DNA of 64,000 nucleotides, from the UHGV virus genome UHGV-0038498. One strand, 5' to 3'. Source of the DNA: a virus. The notes below the pieces were generated by a model, which saw nothing but the letters and a program-made list of their open reading frames with translations, was not told the DNA's origin and ran no database searches. Shown one piece after another: positions 1,174-10,579 of this stretch (the stretch's first letter is position 1; every line of letters starts with the position of its first letter). A program made the position numbers and the translations under genes.

Positions 1174-3870
1174 ATGAAAGAATTTTATATCTCTATCGAA
1201 ACAGTCGGAAATAACATTGTTGAGCGCTATATTGATGAAAACGGAAAGGAACGTACTCGTGAAGTAGAATATCTTCCGACTATGTTTAGGCATTGTAAGG
1301 AAGAGTCAAAATACAAAGACATTTATGGTAAAAATTGCGCTCCTCAAAAATTTCCATCAATGAAAGATGCACGAGACTGGATGAAGCGAATGGAAGACAT
1401 CGGTCTCGAAGCTCTCGGTATGAACGATTTTAAACTCGCTTACATCAGTGATACATATGGTTCAGAAATTGTTTATGACCGAAAATTTGTTCGTGTAGCT
1501 AACTGTGACATTGAGGTTACTGGTGATAAATTTCCTGACCCAATGAAAGCAGAATATGAAATTGATGCTATCACTCATTATGATTCAATTGACGACCGTT
1601 TTTACGTCTTTGACTTGTTGAATTCAATGTACGGTTCAGTATCAAAATGGGATGCAAAGTTAGCTGCTAAGCTTGACTGCGAAGGTGGTGATGAAGTTCC
1701 TCAAGAAATTCTTGACCGAGTAATTTATATGCCATTTGATAATGAGCGTGATATGCTCATGGAATATATTAATCTCTGGGAACAGAAACGACCTGCTATT
1801 TTTACCGGTTGGAATATTGAGGGATTTGACGTTCCGTATATCATGAATCGCGTTAAAATGGTTCTCGGCGAACGCAGTATGAAACGCTTCTCTCCAATCG
1901 GTCGAGTAAAATCTAAACTAATTCAAAATATGTACGGTAGCAAAGAAATTTATTCTATTGATGGCGTATCTATTCTTGATTATTTAGATTTGTACAAGAA
2001 ATTCGCATTTACTAATTTGCCATCATTCTCTTTGGAATCAGTTGCTCAACATGAAACCAAAAAAGGTAAATTACCGTACGATGGTCCTATTAATAAACTT
2101 CGTGAGACTAATCATCAACGATACATTAGTTATAACATCATTGACGTAGAATCAGTTCAAGCAATTGATAAAATTCGTGGGTTTATCGATCTAGTTTTAA
2201 GTATGTCCTATTACGCTAAAATGCCTTTTTCTGGTGTAATGAGTCCTATTAAAACTTGGGATGCTATTATTTTTAACTCACTGAAAGGTGAACATAGGGT
2301 TATTCCTCAACAAGGTTCGCACGTTAAACAGAGTTTTCCAGGTGCATTTGTGTTTGAACCTAAACCGATTGCTCGTCGATACATTATGAGTTTTGACTTG
2401 ACGTCTCTGTATCCTAGCATTATTCGCCAGGTTAACATTAGTCCTGAGACTATTCGCGGGCAGTTTAAAGTTCATCCAATTCATGAATATATCGCAGGAA
2501 CAGCTCCTAAGCCAAGTGATGAATATTCTTGCTCTCCGAATGGATGGATGTATGATAAGCACCAAGAAGGTATCATTCCAAAGGAAATCGCTAAAGTATT
2601 TTTCCAGCGTAAAGATTGGAAAAAGAAAATGTTCGCGGAAGAAATGAATGCCGAAGCTATTAAAAAGATTATTATGAAAGGTGCAGGGTCTTGCTCAACT
2701 AAACCAGAAGTTGAACGATATGTTAAGTTCAGTGATGATTTCTTAAACGAATTATCGAATTACACCGAATCTGTTCTTAATAGTCTGATCGAAGAATGTG
2801 AAAAAGCTGCTACGCTTGCTAACACAAATCAGCTGAACCGTAAAATTCTTATTAACAGTCTTTATGGTGCTCTTGGTAATATTCATTTCCGTTACTATGA
2901 TTTGCGAAATGCTACTGCTATCACAATTTTCGGTCAAGTCGGTATTCAGTGGATTGCTCGTAAAATTAATGAATATCTGAATAAAGTATGTGGAACTAAT
3001 GGTGAAGATTTCATCGCAGCAGGTGATACTGATTCGGTATATGTTTGTGTAGATAAAGTTATTGAAAAAGTAGGTCTTGACCGCTTTAAAGAACAAAATG
3101 ATTTAGTTGAATTCATGAATCAGTTTGGTAAGAAAAAGATGGAACCTATGATTGATGTTGCATATCGTGAGTTATGTGATTATATGAATAACCGCGAGCA
3201 TCTGATGCATATGGACCGTGAAGCTATTTCTTGCCCTCCGCTTGGTTCAAAGGGTGTTGGTGGATTTTGGAAAGCGAAAAAACGTTATGCTCTGAACGTT
3301 TATGATATGGAAGATAAGCGATTTGCCGAACCGCATCTAAAAATTATGGGTATGGAAACTCAACAGAGTTCAACACCAAAAGCAGTACAAGAAGCTCTCG
3401 AAGAAAGTATTCGTCGTATTCTTCAGGAAGGTGAAGAGTCTGTCCAAGAATACTACAAGAACTTTGAGAAAGAATATCGTCAACTTGACTATAAAGTTAT
3501 TGCTGAAGTAAAAACTGCGAACGATATAGCGAAATATGACGATAAAGGTTGGCCAGGATTTAAATGTCCGTTCCATATTCGCGGTGTGCTAACTTATCGT
3601 CGAGCTGTTAACGGTTTAGGTGTAGCTCCAATTTTGGATGGAAATAAGGTAATGGTTCTTCCATTACGTGAAGGAAATCCATTTGGTGACAAGTGCATTG
3701 CTTGGCCATCAGGCACAGAACTTCCAAAAGAAATTCGTTCTGATGTACTGTCTTGGATTGACTACTCAACTTTGTTCCAAAAATCGTTTGTTAAACCGCT
3801 TGCGGGTATGTGTGAATCGGCGGGTATGGACTATGAGGAAAAAGCTTCGTTAGACTTCCTGTTTGGCTGA
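1174..3870 (+). CDS. 43: DNA polymerase gp43 (family B, with 3'-5' exonuclease)
   Basis: 898 aa ORF MKEFYISIETVGNNIVERYIDENGKERTREVEYLPTMFRHCKEESKYKDIYGKNCAPQKF...; same length and near-identical sequence to T4 gp43; polymerase motifs (e.g. YGDTDS-like region ...AAGDTDSVYVC...). Confidence 0.96.
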   Translation: MKEFYISIETVGNNIVERYIDENGKERTREVEYLPTMFRHCKEESKYKDIYGKNCAPQKFPSMKDARDWMKRMEDIGLEALGMNDFKLAYISDTYGSEIVYDRKFVRVANCDIEVTGDKFPDPMKAEYEIDAITHYDSIDDRFYVFDLLNSMYGSVSKWDAKLAAKLDCEGGDEVPQEILDRVIYMPFDNERDMLMEYINLWEQKRPAIFTGWNIEGFDVPYIMNRVKMVLGERSMKRFSPIGRVKSKLIQNMYGSKEIYSIDGVSILDYLDLYKKFAFTNLPSFSLESVAQHETKKGKLPYDGPINKLRETNHQRYISYNIIDVESVQAIDKIRGFIDLVLSMSYYAKMPFSGVMSPIKTWDAIIFNSLKGEHRVIPQQGSHVKQSFPGAFVFEPKPIARRYIMSFDLTSLYPSIIRQVNISPETIRGQFKVHPIHEYIAGTAPKPSDEYSCSPNGWMYDKHQEGIIPKEIAKVFFQRKDWKKKMFAEEMNAEAIKKIIMKGAGSCSTKPEVERYVKFSDDFLNELSNYTESVLNSLIEECEKAATLANTNQLNRKILINSLYGALGNIHFRYYDLRNATAITIFGQVGIQWIARKINEYLNKVCGTNGEDFIAAGDTDSVYVCVDKVIEKVGLDRFKEQNDLVEFMNQFGKKKMEPMIDVAYRELCDYMNNREHLMHMDREAISCPPLGSKGVGGFWKAKKRYALNVYDMEDKRFAEPHLKIMGMETQQSSTPKAVQEALEESIRRILQEGEESVQEYYKNFEKEYRQLDYKVIAEVKTANDIAKYDDKGWPGFKCPFHIRGVLTYRRAVNGLGVAPILDGNKVMVLPLREGNPFGDKCIAWPSGTELPKEIRSDVLSWIDYSTLFQKSFVKPLAGMCESAGMDYEEKASLDFLFG

Positions 3871-3883
3871 TAGAATAAATCTA

Positions 3884-3905
3884 GGGACCTCCGGGTCCCT
3901 TTTTC
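3884..3905 (+). terminator. Rho-independent terminator (GGGACC-TCCG-GGTCCC + TTTTTC)
   Basis: Perfect 6 bp GC stem, tetraloop, T-run 14 nt after gene 43 stop. Confidence 0.7.
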
Positions 3906-3980
3906 ATACAAGTAATATAAATCTATACTTAGGAAAAATAGATGATTCTAGGTCCTGTAAATTCATTAAAAATTTTTTCA

Positions 3981-4020
3981 CAAAACTGTTTACATCCCTG
4001 TTCTTCCATGGTACTATACA
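3981..4020 (+). promoter_or_regulatory. T4-type early promoter (-35 GTTTAC 3988-3993, 18 nt spacer, -10 TACTAT 4012-4017) with A/T-rich UP-like tract
   Basis: Matches the GTTTAC-N18-TAnnAT geometry repeated 15 times in the window; directly upstream of the SD/ATG at 4052. Confidence 0.55.
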
Positions 4021-4051
4021 ACTATCAACTGATACGGATTTGGAGAATAAA

Positions 4052-4309
4052 ATGAAAATTGTTTATGGTTGTTTAGCAGCGTGTTTAGTTGCATTAGCAG
4101 TTGTTCTAGTTGCATTAGCAGCTGTTCCATTTATTGATATTGAAAATGACACTCAGAATGTGATTGAATCTAATACTGTTATTCACATGAATGGTAAAGT
4201 ATCAACAAAAATTGATGATAATCTTCATATGAATACTAATGGAACGCTGGGTGTTCAATTAGGTAATACCTGTGTAAGCACTACTGGAGTAATTACTACT
4301 TGTATTTGA
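4052..4309 (+). CDS. Hypothetical secreted or membrane-anchored protein (N-terminal hydrophobic helix)
   Basis: ATG 4052 preceded by GGAGAATAAA; product MKIVYGCLAACLVALAVVLVALAAVPF...; the track ORF 3863..4309 extends through terminator and promoter and is not credible as a start. Confidence 0.55.
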   Translation: MKIVYGCLAACLVALAVVLVALAAVPFIDIENDTQNVIESNTVIHMNGKVSTKIDDNLHMNTNGTLGVQLGNTCVSTTGVITTCI

Positions 4310-4319
4310 GGAAATTGTT

Positions 4320-4700
4320 ATGAAAATCGCTATTTTGGTTATTGCATTGGGTCTTACTGGCTGCGTAGCTCAAGGACCGGTAGTAAATCAATCTGATGTA
4401 GGAAAAATTGTAAACTGTTCAAGCAAATTTTATAATCCTAATGTTAAGTGTTATAAAGAAGCTCCAAAACAGACAGTAGAACAAATGCAGGCGAATTTTG
4501 ACGAAGCTATTCGTCCAGATGAATCTGCTCAAGCATATCGTAATTCAGATGTAATTACACGCGAAGAAAAAATTGAAAACTACTGCGCCGAACTTTGGGC
4601 TAATTGGGCTAATAATTACCAATGGCGTACAGGTAAAAATGCTCCGATGGAGTATGTAGTGAATTCTTATAATTCATGTGTAAAAAATTTGACTAAGTGA
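4320..4700 (+). CDS. Predicted lipoprotein (signal peptide with lipobox LTGC)
   Basis: 126 aa ORF MKIAILVIALGLTGCVAQGP...; SD GAGGAAA upstream; sits between gene 43 and imm. Confidence 0.6.
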   Translation: MKIAILVIALGLTGCVAQGPVVNQSDVGKIVNCSSKFYNPNVKCYKEAPKQTVEQMQANFDEAIRPDESAQAYRNSDVITREEKIENYCAELWANWANNYQWRTGKNAPMEYVVNSYNSCVKNLTK

Positions 4701-4707
4701 GGAAAAC

Positions 4708-4959
4708 ATGGAAACTTTAGTAGCAGGTTCAATTTTTATGGTTTTAGTTTCAGGCGTGTTGGCTATCATTATATACATGCTTCCGTGGTTCATCGCCTTG
4801 ATGCGTGGGTCAAAATCGACAGTAGGAATCTTTTTCACATCTTTACTGTTTAATTGGTCAATTATTGGTTGGTTTATTACATTTATTTGGTCAATTGCGG
4901 GTGAAACTAAAAAATCTGCACAACCGAATCAAGTAATTATCATCAGAGAGAAGGAATGA
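4708..4959 (+). CDS. imm: Superinfection immunity protein Imm
   Basis: 83 aa membrane protein METLVAGSIFMVLVSGVLAIIIYMLPWFIALMRGSKS...; T4 Imm length and sequence. Confidence 0.9.
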   Translation: METLVAGSIFMVLVSGVLAIIIYMLPWFIALMRGSKSTVGIFFTSLLFNWSIIGWFITFIWSIAGETKKSAQPNQVIIIREKE

Positions 4960-5105
4960 AAAGCAAAATTTTAGCAGTATTGCTTTTAATCTTGATGATT
5001 ATAATAAGTATATACTATAGCGTAACGGTTCCTTGTATGATTCCGACACTTATTATAGGTTGGGGTTTATTACTGTTACAAGTTAAATATGAATGTATCA
5101 ATTGA
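4956..5105 (+). CDS. Hypothetical small membrane protein (49 aa)
   Basis: ATG overlaps imm stop (ATGA); translation MKSKILAVLLLILMIIISIYYSVTVPCMIPTLIIGWGLLLLQVKYECIN; not in ORF track (under 60 aa). Confidence 0.4.
   Translation: MKSKILAVLLLILMIIISIYYSVTVPCMIPTLIIGWGLLLLQVKYECIN
4981..5005 (+). promoter_or_regulatory. Candidate MotA-dependent middle promoter for gene 42 (MotA box TGCTT 4981-4985, -10 TATAAT 5000-5005)
   Basis: TGCTT box 19 nt upstream of a TATAAT hexamer, the spacing expected for T4 middle promoters; lies inside the small ORF. Confidence 0.3.
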
Positions 5106-5112
5106 GGTTTAA

Positions 5113-5853
5113 ATGATTAGTGACTCTATGACAGTTGAAGAAATCCGTCTTCATTTGGGGCTTGCATTAAAGGAAAAAGATTTCGTAGTTGATAAAACTG
5201 GCGTTAAAACTATTGAAATTATTGGCGCATCATTTGTAGCAGATGAACCGTTTATTTTTGGCGCTCTTAATGATGAATACATTCAGCGTGAACTTGAATG
5301 GTATAAATCTAAAAGTTTGTTTGTTAAAGATATTCCAGGTGAAACACCGAAGATTTGGCAACAGGTAGCATCTTCTAAAGGCGAAATTAACTCGAATTAT
5401 GGTTGGGCCATCTGGTCAGAAGATAACTATGCTCAGTATGATATGTGTTTAGCTGAACTTGGTCAAAATCCTGATTCTCGACGCGGTATCATGATTTATA
5501 CTCGTCCATCCATGCAGTTTGACTACAATAAAGATGGTATGTCAGATTTCATGTGTACGAATACAGTACAGTACCTGATTCGTGATAAGAAAGTCAATGC
5601 AGTAGTGAGCATGCGTTCAAATGACGTTGTCTTCGGATTCCGTAATGATTATGCATGGCAAAAATACGTACTAGATAAATTAGTATCTGATTTGAATGCA
5701 GGTGATTCAACTCGTCAGTATAAAGCAGGTTCTATTATATGGAATGTTGGAAGTCTTCATGTATATTCTCGTCATTTTTACTTGGTTGATCATTGGTGGA
5801 ATACTGGCGAAACTCATATTGTGAAAAAAGATTATAATGGTGAGTGGAAATGA
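5113..5853 (+). CDS. 42: dCMP hydroxymethylase gp42
   Basis: 246 aa ORF MISDSMTVEEIRLHLGLALKEKDFVVDKTGVKTIEIIGASFVADEPFIFGALNDEYIQRELEWYKSK...; T4 gp42 length and sequence; implies hydroxymethyl-cytosine DNA. Confidence 0.95.
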   Translation: MISDSMTVEEIRLHLGLALKEKDFVVDKTGVKTIEIIGASFVADEPFIFGALNDEYIQRELEWYKSKSLFVKDIPGETPKIWQQVASSKGEINSNYGWAIWSEDNYAQYDMCLAELGQNPDSRRGIMIYTRPSMQFDYNKDGMSDFMCTNTVQYLIRDKKVNAVVSMRSNDVVFGFRNDYAWQKYVLDKLVSDLNAGDSTRQYKAGSIIWNVGSLHVYSRHFYLVDHWWNTGETHIVKKDYNGEWK

Positions 5854-6692
5854 TTCAATTCGTAATTCCAAGCTATCAACGCGTAGGGGCAGTTTCTGCC
5901 CTTGATATGTTTCCGACTGATTATGAACCTCATATTGTAGTACGTGAACACGAAGAAAAAGCTTATTATGACGCTTACGGGTCTAGAGCTAAAATTATAA
6001 CTATTCCTGATGATGTTAACGGAATTGCTGGTACTCGTAAAGCAATTACTGATATGTATGCAGGTCAACGAATTTGGATGATTGATGATGATACTACTAT
6101 TCGTATGAGTTCAATGCGAAAGAAAGATGATCGTCGCTGCGTAGATAAAATTAATCAGTTAACTCGTGAACAGTTCTATGAATTGATTCAATACGTTGAA
6201 GATGCCATGGATTGCGGGTATTATCATGGTCATGCTCGTCTGCCTATTTTTAAAATTACTTCATCTTGGGGTAATTATCGTGAAAATTCATATGGATTTA
6301 CGAATACCTGGTATGACCTCGGAAAACTTACAACAGAACAAATTGGGTATGGAAAAATTGATTTATGCGAAGATATGTATGCATTTCTCAATTTAATTAA
6401 TCAAGGTTATCCGCATTTGGCCTTGTTCAAATATCTGGTTGTATCTGGAAAAGCGCAAGCTCCTGGCGGATGTAGTTCAATTCGTAGTAATTCAAAACAT
6501 AATAGAGCTCTTGAGCAAATCAATAGAGAGTTTCCAGAGCAAGCTCGTTGGAAAACATCGAATATTGAAAAGAGAAAATCGTTGGGTGAAGAAGACGAGC
6601 CATTAAAGGTTCTTCGTATGTGTGTTTCGCGCAAAGAAAAATCAGAAGCGTTTCATAAGTTTAATGCTATTCATCCAATAGCAGTTGATTAA
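5850..6692 (+). CDS. Putative DNA glycosyltransferase (GT-A-like, DxD motif) occupying the beta-gt position
   Basis: 280 aa from ATG 5850 (ATGA overlap with gene 42 stop; track uses GTG 5844); product MIQFVIPSYQRVGAVSALDMF...RIWMIDDDTTIRM...; not similar to T4 beta-gt as I recall it. Confidence 0.55.
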   Translation: MIQFVIPSYQRVGAVSALDMFPTDYEPHIVVREHEEKAYYDAYGSRAKIITIPDDVNGIAGTRKAITDMYAGQRIWMIDDDTTIRMSSMRKKDDRRCVDKINQLTREQFYELIQYVEDAMDCGYYHGHARLPIFKITSSWGNYRENSYGFTNTWYDLGKLTTEQIGYGKIDLCEDMYAFLNLINQGYPHLALFKYLVVSGKAQAPGGCSSIRSNSKHNRALEQINREFPEQARWKTSNIEKRKSLGEEDEPLKVLRMCVSRKEKSEAFHKFNAIHPIAVD

Positions 6693-6747
6693 TGCCTAAA
6701 TTTATTGTGTTATAATTACTCTATCTTTAACCAGTGAGGAAAATATA

Positions 6748-6804
6748 ATGTTGCCTATGGAAAAAATGAATGTCTATTGCAGATTTAAAATCCCGTTTGA
6801 TTAA
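6748..6804 (+). other. Short upstream ORF (18 codons) with strong SD, overlapping the uvsX start in another frame
   Basis: GTGAGGAAAATATA precedes ATG 6748; translation MLPMEKMNVYCRFKIPFD; uvsX ATG at 6770 has only a weak GGA upstream. Confidence 0.25.
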
Positions 6805-7951
6805 AGCTTCCACTTCTAAAATGACTGCTGAACTGACTACATCTAAATTCTTTAATGAAAAGGATGTAATCCGTACAAAAATCCCAATGCTTAATATCGC
6901 TATTTCTGGTGCGATTGATGGTGGTATGCAGTCTGGTTTAACCATTTTTGCAGGTCCTTCTAAACACTTTAAATCAAATATGTCTTTGACTATGGTTGCG
7001 GCGTATTTGAACAAATATCCTGACGCGGTATGTCTATTTTATGATAGCGAATTTGGTATTACTCCAGCTTATTTGCGATCCATGGGAGTTGACCCGGAAC
7101 GAGTAATTCATACACCAATTCAGTCAGTTGAACAGCTGAAAATTGATATGGTGAATCAGCTTGAAGCTATTGAGCGTGGTGAAAAAGTTATTGTATTCAT
7201 CGACTCAATCGGTAATATGGCTTCTAAGAAAGAAACGGAAGATGCCTTGAATGAAAAATCTGTGGCAGATATGACTCGTGCTAAATCACTGAAGTCATTA
7301 TTCCGTATTGTTACTCCTTATTTTAGTATTAAAAACATTCCATGCGTTGCGGTTAACCATACAATTGAAACAATTGAAATGTTTAGTAAAACCGTGATGA
7401 CAGGTGGTACAGGCGTAATGTATTCGGCTGATACCGTATTCATTATCGGTAAGCGCCAGATTAAAGATGGTTCTGATCTTCAGGGGTATCAATTTGTTCT
7501 AAATGTAGAAAAATCTCGTACCGTCAAAGAAAAAAGTAAATTCTTTATTGATGTTAAATTTGACGGTGGTATCGATCCTTATTCTGGATTGTTAGATATG
7601 GCTCTTGAATTAGGATTTGTGGTAAAACCTAAAAATGGCTGGTATGCTCGTGAATTTCTTGATGAAGAAACCGGCGAGATGATTCGCGAAGAAAAATCTT
7701 GGCGTGCAAAAGATACCAACTGCACTACATTCTGGGGTCCTTTATTTAAGCATCAACCATTCCGAGATGCTATTAAACGTGCTTATCAGTTAGGTGCTAT
7801 TGATAGTAATGAAATTGTTGAAGCTGAAGTTGATGAATTGATTAACTCAAAGGTTGAAAAATTTAAATCTCCAGAAAGTAAAAGTAAATCAGCAGCTGAT
7901 TTAGAAACTGACCTAGATCAGTTAAGTGATATGGAAGAATTTAATGAATAA
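6770..7951 (+). CDS. uvsX: Recombinase UvsX (RecA/Rad51-like)
   Basis: 393 aa ORF MSIADLKSRLIKASTSKMTAELTTSKFFNEKDVIRTKIPMLNIAISGAIDGG...; T4 UvsX with a 2-residue N-terminal insertion and scattered substitutions. Confidence 0.92.
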   Translation: MSIADLKSRLIKASTSKMTAELTTSKFFNEKDVIRTKIPMLNIAISGAIDGGMQSGLTIFAGPSKHFKSNMSLTMVAAYLNKYPDAVCLFYDSEFGITPAYLRSMGVDPERVIHTPIQSVEQLKIDMVNQLEAIERGEKVIVFIDSIGNMASKKETEDALNEKSVADMTRAKSLKSLFRIVTPYFSIKNIPCVAVNHTIETIEMFSKTVMTGGTGVMYSADTVFIIGKRQIKDGSDLQGYQFVLNVEKSRTVKEKSKFFIDVKFDGGIDPYSGLLDMALELGFVVKPKNGWYAREFLDEETGEMIREEKSWRAKDTNCTTFWGPLFKHQPFRDAIKRAYQLGAIDSNEIVEAEVDELINSKVEKFKSPESKSKSAADLETDLDQLSDMEEFNE

Positions 7952-10285: not shown

Positions 10286-10579
10286 ATGAAAAAATTTATC
10301 TTTGCTACAATTTTTGCTTTATCTTCTTGTGCTGCTCAGCCTGCTATGGCGGGTTATGACAAAGATTTGTGTGAATGGTCTATGACTGCAGATCAGACTG
10401 AAGTTGAAACTCAAATTGAAGCAGATATTATGAATATTGTTGAGCGTGACCGTCCTGAAATGAAAGCTGAAGTACAAAAACAGCTTAAGTCTGGTGGTGT
10501 AATGCAGTATAATTATGTTCTGTATTGCGATAAAAACTTTAATAATAAAAATATCATCGCTGAAGTGGTAGGTGAATAA
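10286..10579 (+). CDS. sp: Spackle periplasmic protein Sp (superinfection exclusion / lysozyme inhibitor; gene 61.3)
   Basis: 97 aa with cleavable signal peptide MKKFIFATIFALSSCAAQPAMA|GYDKDLCEWSM...; matches T4 Sp. Confidence 0.88.
   Translation: MKKFIFATIFALSSCAAQPAMAGYDKDLCEWSMTADQTEVETQIEADIMNIVERDRPEMKAEVQKQLKSGGVMQYNYVLYCDKNFNNKNIIAEVVGE

Follow-up and report, generated by a model that had tools for sequence, protein, structure and literature searches.

A lipoprotein gene that stays beside imm in T4-like phages, with a tentative case for a periplasmic partner of superinfection immunity

What does the small lipoprotein encoded next to the superinfection-immunity gene imm do in T4-like phages, and is its place there more than a matter of shared transcription? 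We address this question for UHGV virus genome UHGV-0038498, of which a stretch of 64,000 nucleotides (one strand, 5' to 3'; hereafter the window) was analysed, and specifically for the interval 3884-5112 between gene 43 (DNA polymerase) and gene 42 (dCMP hydroxymethylase). This interval holds four small open reading frames (ORFs): an ORF of 85 amino acids (aa), imm.1 for the predicted lipoprotein, imm, and a 49-aa ORF known as 42.1 (Table 1). The gene identities and the operon layout, those of a standard Tequatrovirus early "imm operon", are close to certain; the four genes are already annotated in other, near-identical genomes and nothing here is new as sequence. What the comparison provides is that, in all T4-like lineages sampled, the gene of an uncharacterised lipoprotein is found linked to imm, which does not hold for its operon neighbours. 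This linkage bears on an old problem, that of T4 superinfection immunity in the periplasm and of how Imm is positioned. Taken as an explanation of the whole operon, the reading in which Imm.1 is a periplasmic partner of Imm has in our judgement a probability of roughly 0.45. Moreover, we flag that the 49-aa membrane protein, although conserved, is missing from the T4 reference annotation.

The imm.1 lipoprotein gene and its linkage to imm

The 126-aa product covers the DUF5481 profile from end to end (positions 1-103 of 103) with a score of 239.2 bits (cut-off 27). Its identity to the T4 and T6 proteins is 99%, and about 500 Tequatrovirus records contain it at ≥95% identity. As in T4, T6 and RB32, its gene lies directly upstream of imm between genes 43 and 42. 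An earlier reading of the window made from the letters alone (the first-pass annotation) stated that T4 has imm.1 plus imm in the 43-42 interval, which matches the T4 reference annotation, where only these two genes are listed. It also proposed that the lipoprotein may be an accessory beyond the T4 content; this fails, the lipoprotein being T4 imm.1 itself, at the same position and conserved there throughout the records just mentioned. Together with 42.1 of RB32, T4 imm.1 and imm (T4p046 and T4p045) represent the same genes in the same order as in the window, with the same terminator and early promoter, and the terminator, promoter, imm.1, imm and the imm-42 spacer of T4 and the window are collinear and ~97% identical. 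The differences from T4 are an extra 268-bp block with the 85-aa ORF and a 1-bp indel, which gives an Imm.1 of 126 instead of 125 aa. In T4 RefSeq, imm.1 (NC_000866 T4p046, 6637-7014) carries the label "iduronate sulfatase"; this looks like an annotation error because the only family matches are to DUF5481 and phrog_1754.

The N-terminus of Imm.1 (MKIAILVIALG-LTGC) ends in a canonical lipobox with Cys15 and has the sequence features of a bacterial-type lipoprotein processed by signal peptidase II, which bears out the LTGC lipobox read in the first pass. The lipobox Cys is kept in 11 of 12 divergent lineages. In the exceptional lineage (L015) a signal-peptidase-I-type signal (LAGFSAHAS) takes the place of the lipobox, which suggests that the anchor is dispensable and that the periplasmic part is the functional unit. 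The homologues have V, G, A, S or Q at position +2 after the lipid Cys, and none has D. Other conserved features of DUF5481, apart from the signal peptide with its lipobox, are the motifs YNPxxKxY and AYRxS and an invariant Cys pair (C89 and C120). Within Tequatrovirus the ratio of nonsynonymous to synonymous substitution rates (dN/dS) of imm.1 is 0.02-0.12 at dS 0.05-0.22, i.e. the gene is under very strong purifying selection. In a T4 multi-omics set, imm.1 is classed as early RNA and early protein, like sp (PMC9697503 supplement).

In all lineages sampled, imm has a gene for a lipoprotein of the Imm.1 family as its neighbour, with at most one small gene in between. The order is 43 - imm.1 - imm - 42.1 - 42 in Tequatrovirus (window, T4, T6 and RB32), with the 85-aa ORF after gene 43 in the window only; 43 - lipoprotein - imm - 42 in Gelderlandvirus S16, Karamvirus CkP1, Jiaodavirus Metamorpho and Klebsiella phage Roth51; 43 - imm - 42.1 - lipoprotein in Gaprivervirus TH44 and phage CUA3; and dmd - imm.1 - imm - sp in Mosigvirus, where the pair occupies a different locus that adjoins the spackle gene (sp). 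For each divergent DUF5481 homologue (29-55% identity), the next gene downstream is an imm of PF14373. The lipoproteins of these lineages all match phrog_1754 with E-values of 1e-15 to 1e-52, and they have in common a G-x-V-V-x-x-x-E-V-G-K motif after the lipid Cys, a C-terminal Cys pair and an (F/Y)-N-K-C ending. By tblastn the lipoprotein subtypes were found in 657, 122 and 266 records, the 148 records of the Roth type overlapping with the 266, and imm in 1002 records; the overlapping subtype counts are thus of the same order as that of imm. Since 42.1 separates from imm (see below), the linkage that resists rearrangement is that of lipoprotein and imm and not that of the whole four-gene cluster. 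The first-pass idea of a lipoprotein that acts together with the immunity gene is strengthened by this linkage, which holds even after relocation; the way in which it was thought to do so is another matter and is taken up with the receptor blockers below.

Proposed role of Imm.1 and rival explanations

In all likelihood the terminator ends transcription of gene 43, the early promoter drives the variable slot (here the 85-aa ORF), imm.1, imm and 42.1, and a middle promoter inside 42.1 takes over the transcription of gene 42. Imm.1, made early as Sp and Imm are, would be cleaved and lipidated at Cys15. An Asp at +2 governs the Lol sorting of lipoproteins (the +2 rule), and given that Asp is absent from this position in the sampled homologues, sorting to the outer membrane is predicted, with the protein in the inner leaflet and facing the periplasm. 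AlphaFold2 (AF2) models Imm.1 with confidence only for a C-terminal helical hairpin (residues 81-125; predicted local distance difference test, pLDDT, ~90), which contains C89 and C120, and gives low confidence to the ~65 residues after the lipid Cys. Hence the hairpin, stapled by a C89-C120 disulfide, may be held in the periplasm on a poorly ordered tether of ~65 residues. Its target could be the incoming tail tip, the tape-measure protein or Imm itself: the hairpin might capture or misdirect the emerging tape-measure protein or tail tip, or, alternatively, Imm.1 might be the long-postulated partner that positions Imm. For the protein on its own, a role as periplasmic auxiliary of superinfection immunity, proposed from sequence features and gene context, is to be taken as tentative. 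Still more tentative is the broader proposal that the lipoprotein, which lies beside imm in roughly a thousand Tevenvirinae genomes, represents a third, periplasmic exclusion component alongside Imm and Spackle, with 42.1 perhaps as a further subunit.

This proposal can be set against known systems. Residing in the inner membrane, T4 Imm attaches to the helical-bundle domain of gp29, the tape-measure protein, and prevents translocation of the genome (bioRxiv 10.64898/2026.03.06.709160). HK97 gp15 and T4 Imm are both inner-membrane blockers of tape-measure-mediated genome entry, and the Imm of the window belongs to this class. To our knowledge, no lipoprotein partner has been described for either the HK97 gp15 or the T4 Imm system. 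Imm.1 also resembles Spackle (Sp) of T4, which inhibits the gp5 lysozyme in the periplasm, in being small, early, exported, helical and Cys-containing, and Sp works where we propose Imm.1 to work, on the incoming tail tip within the periplasm. The two differ in that Sp is soluble and has a known target, whereas Imm.1 is predicted to be lipid-anchored; they have no sequence similarity, and the sp gene of the window (10286-10576) belongs to a separate family, PF25676.

DUF5481 is a very small family. A sequence-profile search of the PDB with the Imm.1 family gave no match at E ≤1, and Foldseek with the Imm.1 model gave none against the PDB at E ≤0.001. Among 1.84 billion representative proteins, a full scan with HMMER detected six DUF5481 clusters, to which a profile search with alignment A4 added one; bacterial homologues that would inform on DUF5481 function were not among these representatives. 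The word-indexed protein search recovered close relatives only, and the IMG/VR locus search five loci, all near-identical.

Several points weigh against a partnership of Imm.1 with Imm. First, T4 plates with lower efficiency when Imm alone is expressed from a plasmid (bioRxiv 10.64898/2026.03.06.709160), so Imm.1 is not strictly required for exclusion. Second, our literature search on the function of Imm.1 and DUF5481 found no paper, no interaction or phenotype data and no experiment tying Imm.1 to exclusion. Third, hhalign of the T4-type against the remote lipoproteins aligned the first 30 residues only, so homology of the remote groups rests on phrog_1754 membership and the shared motifs. 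Fourth, the AF2 model is poor in its N-terminal half (pLDDT <60, from an alignment of seven sequences). Finally, the conserved adjacency could mirror co-regulation of envelope genes or cassette inheritance and not partnership.

The first two of these points also favour the most serious rival, according to which Imm.1 is an envelope protein without an immunity role (stabilising the infected cell envelope, modulating lysis inhibition or the timing of lysis, or targeting a periplasmic factor of the host) that travels with imm as a small early envelope gene of the same transcription unit. T4 early regions do often string together small membrane proteins, and the 85-aa ORF and 42.1 share the operon yet separate from imm. 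The behaviour of these two neighbours also cuts the other way, as imm.1, unlike them, does not come apart from imm: the imm.1-imm adjacency survives at least two independent rearrangements, i.e. the move beside sp in Mosigvirus and the swapped order in Gaprivervirus, and it persists down to about 25-35% sequence identity. Moreover, between two genera of Escherichia coli phages Imm.1 is ~33-38% identical against ~65% for Imm, which argues against a shared conserved host target. Being constrained within a genus and divergent between genera, Imm.1 fits a phage-side target or a co-evolving partner better than a shared host protein. On balance we regard an Imm.1 without a part in immunity as unlikely, and less so than any other rival.

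Far less probable is the explanation put forward in the first pass, in which the lipoprotein gene is accessory, has no counterpart in T4 and acts like Llp of T5 or Cor of T1/phi80-like phages by blocking a receptor or the entry of DNA. The likeness is real in that these are small phage lipoproteins made in the infected cell, with a predicted place on the periplasmic face of the outer membrane and a link to exclusion functions, and the gene does lie beside an immunity gene. Llp and Cor, however, block a specific receptor, FhuA, whereas Imm.1 is nearly invariant across T-even phages with different receptors. T4 and T6 use different outer-membrane receptors, OmpC/lipopolysaccharide and Tsx, respectively, yet their Imm.1 proteins differ from that of the window by at most one residue. 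The Imm.1 of the window had no match to the Cor family (phrog_1119); remote homologues gave weak matches to it (E = 0.02-0.05), but these are confined to residues 1-20, that is, to the signal peptide and lipobox. Near-identity in T4 and T6 despite their receptors, together with no sequence or fold similarity to those families, argues that Imm.1 is not an Llp/Cor-type receptor blocker, and the "absent from T4" half of the explanation is already refuted by the 99% identity with T4 imm.1.

Imm, the 42.1 microprotein and the 85-aa accessory gene

The four first-pass gene calls are all present, each with a GGAG/GAGG-type Shine-Dalgarno sequence ahead of it, and all four ORFs match PHROG or Pfam families. 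The envelope targeting claimed for the products is likewise in keeping with our data, as each has a strong hydrophobic segment (Kyte-Doolittle ≥1.6). The first of the four was placed correctly and counted as 86 aa, where its length is 85 aa.

Table 1. Features of the imm operon region and its flanks in the window
Feature	Position	Strand	Details
Gene 43 (DNA polymerase), upstream flank	1174..3870	+	898-aa ORF, near-identical to T4 gp43
Intrinsic terminator after gene 43	3883..3905 (hairpin 3883-3900)	+	7-bp stem with 5 G-C pairs, then TTTTT
T4-type early promoter of the operon	3989..4017	+	TTTACA-17-TACTAT, TG upstream
Variable accessory gene; exported or N-terminally anchored small beta-rich protein, 85 aa	4052..4309	+	phrog_4189, 3.5e-31
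Tandem repeat of 21 bp in the hydrophobic N-terminus of the 85-aa ORF	4073..4127	+	2.6 copies; Tandem Repeats Finder
imm.1, predicted lipoprotein, 126 aa (DUF5481/phrog_1754)	4320..4700	+	PF17578, 5.4e-72; phrog_1754, 5e-44
imm, superinfection-immunity inner-membrane protein, 83 aa	4708..4959	+	PF14373, 7.7e-16; 58.2 bits against a cut-off of 27.9
42.1, hydrophobic microprotein, 49 aa	4956..5105	+	phrog_3610, 1.2e-25; start overlaps imm stop as ATGA
MotA-type middle-promoter motif for gene 42, inside the 49-aa ORF	4981..5005	+	TGCTT-N14-TATAAT
Gene 42 (dCMP hydroxymethylase), downstream flank	5113..5853	+	246-aa ORF, near-identical to T4 gp42

The identification of the third ORF as Imm stands (Pfam Imm_superinfect, 58 bits against 27.9); its product is 100% identical to T6 Imm and 98.8% to T4 Imm. 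An in-frame TGA at 4690-4692 blocks the N-terminal extension to a 94-aa Imm that is possible in T4. Close to the end of imm.1, T4 (NC_000866 6374-6658, minus strand) has an additional base, TTGACCTAAG against TTGACTAAG in the window (4690-4710). With this base, the T4 Imm.1 has 125 aa and an in-frame upstream ATG becomes available, giving the 94-aa Imm, which was the form used for cryo-electron microscopy (bioRxiv 10.64898/2026.03.06.709160). An in-frame TGA closes the extension in the window as well as in each of the six further Tequatrovirus loci that were examined. With the TGA in all non-T4 loci examined, only the 83-aa Imm is conserved and the 94-aa start is T4-specific.

The 49-aa product of 42.1 is probably a two-helix membrane hairpin. 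The ORF is named 42.1 in RB32 and is annotated in many newer records; it is intact and unannotated in T4 RefSeq (NC_000866 6228-6377, minus strand) and in T6 GenBank (about 818-970). The protein of the window is 88% identical to that encoded by the unannotated T4 ORF. It is conserved across at least five genera, with the ORF open in at least nine distinct lineages, and an invariant pattern, P-x-MIPT...W...Q-x-K-Y/F-x-C, is found across genera; most between-genus pairs have a dN/dS of 0.17-0.35 with synonymous sites near saturation, and conservation is strongest in the C-terminal half. The middle promoter cannot account for the conservation of the protein, which is also kept in genera where gene 42 does not follow. 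Accordingly, that the 49-aa ORF and/or the 85-aa ORF are chance ORFs over regulatory DNA or a repeat is scarcely credible, even though the 49-aa ORF is unannotated in the T4 and T6 records, has a middle-promoter motif inside it and lies where the SA20RB record annotates a promoter and a terminator only: against this stand the data just given, which include the Mosigvirus-like genera without a following gene 42, the PHROG matches and ribosome-binding sites of both ORFs and, for the 85-aa ORF, a dN/dS of 0.16-0.43 (pairs with dS >0.1) and a conserved C-terminal Cys pair.

In Mosigvirus, Mosugukvirus and Kanagawavirus, 42.1 remains in the 43-42 interval, where it is coupled to a different upstream gene, and several genera have an imm locus without 42.1. 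It is therefore a conserved member of the 43-42 interval that is coupled to imm in many cases yet can separate from it. In two of the three records the upstream gene is annotated as arabinose-5-phosphate isomerase, and in the third it is unnamed. The 43-42 interval of these three genera (L004 1818-4323; L005 1824-4318; L006 1824-4323) also holds an ORF of ~560 aa, annotated as nucleotidyltransferase in one record, and the 42.1 homologue lies between the isomerase-like gene and this ORF, its start overlapping the stop of the isomerase-like gene. The isomerase-like and nucleotidyltransferase genes may be DNA hypermodification genes.

The 85-aa gene is not a fixed part of the immunity module. It is missing from T4, T6 and RB32, and in the alignment with T4 the sole missing block is the 268 bp that hold it. 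The junction lies at a repeated ATGAAAAT, with which both the 85-aa ORF and imm.1 start, and the block sits between a ribosome-binding site shared with T4 and the imm.1 start codon. The ORF was found in 326 phage records (by tblastn and blastn alike), which correspond to ~60-65% of the Tequatrovirus records. A homologue with 61% identity is present elsewhere in the Dhakavirus phages dhabil and dhaeg, near Nudix hydrolase, lysozyme and pyrimidine-dimer-excision (denV-type) genes, and in one metagenomic relative a frd.3-like gene fills the slot instead. This relocation and replacement suggest that the 85-aa gene is a mobile accessory in a variable slot after the early promoter.

Membership of the 85-aa protein in phrog_4189 is based on the hidden Markov model match and a conserved C-terminal C-x9-C (alignment A2). 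The AF2 model has an N-terminal helix (residues 2-23) followed by six short strands (42-84). The common allele has 78 aa and that of the window a 7-residue N-terminal expansion, the difference in length being due to the 21-bp tandem repeat at 4073-4127 (alignment A2). Judged by its residues, the N-terminus may be either a signal peptide that is cleaved, possibly at VALA/AVPF, or an anchor that stays uncleaved. The protein was also considered as a lipoprotein, and this was rejected: a lipobox with Cys18 is present only in one allele, labelled "Lipoprotein" in UniRef, and the lipobox-like LAAC at residues 8-11 is not conserved, most alleles having LAVC. The UniRef label is probably explained by the lipobox being present in some alleles only. 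Two main allele groups of the gene were seen, with ~85% and 90-99% nucleotide identity to the window copy, while identity of the neighbouring Imm.1 protein is ≥95% throughout the Tequatrovirus records, a pattern that points to recombinational exchange or to faster evolution in the slot.

Transcription signals and wider gene context

The terminator and early promoter of its own that the first pass assigned to the cluster are both there, at 3883-3900 and 3989-4017, respectively. A scan of the region found three terminator-like sites where 0.7 were expected. The terminator after gene 43 is conserved in T4 and is annotated as such in SA20RB, a phage record with 98.6% identity. Its stem differs from that of T4 by a 1-bp indel and an A/G change, with the hairpin kept (GGGACC...GGTCCC in the window, GGACC...GGTCC in T4). 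The early promoter is identical in T4, and SA20RB has a T4 early promoter annotated at this position. A 37-aa ORF at 3942-4055 was rejected as a gene, as it merely overlies the conserved early promoter. MotA-type motifs number eight across the window against 0.44 expected by chance; SA20RB annotates a middle promoter at the site 4981-5005, and the motif within 42.1 fits middle-mode transcription of gene 42.

Hundreds of Tequatrovirus (T4-like) genomes share 95-99% identity with the interval 3871-5112, the closest being those of Hafnia phage IsaacDaniel and Shigella phage ESh26 (99.1% each). The base composition showed no anomaly that would hint at a recent foreign origin, and no paralogues of the four proteins were found within the window. 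The Rfam scan gave no matches, and the NCBIfam and PADLOC scans sub-threshold noise only. On the + strand the gene order is regA, a small gene resembling RB18 ORF43.1, gene 43, the four ORFs, gene 42, a glucosyltransferase gene and uvsX. The small gene in the gap between regA and gene 43 (836-1093, with an ATG at 857) matches PF25760 (Phage RB18 ORF43.1; 7.7e-31); T4 has no gene between regA and 43, only 78 bp. After gene 42, at 5844-6692, the window encodes a beta-glucosyl-hydroxymethylcytosine-alpha-glucosyltransferase of T2/T6 type (Pfam TAGT) and not the beta-glucosyltransferase of T4, and there is no segA homing-endonuclease gene ahead of uvsX in the window. From the TAGT gene after gene 42 and the absent segA, DNA glucosylation in the style of T2/T6 is expected for this phage.

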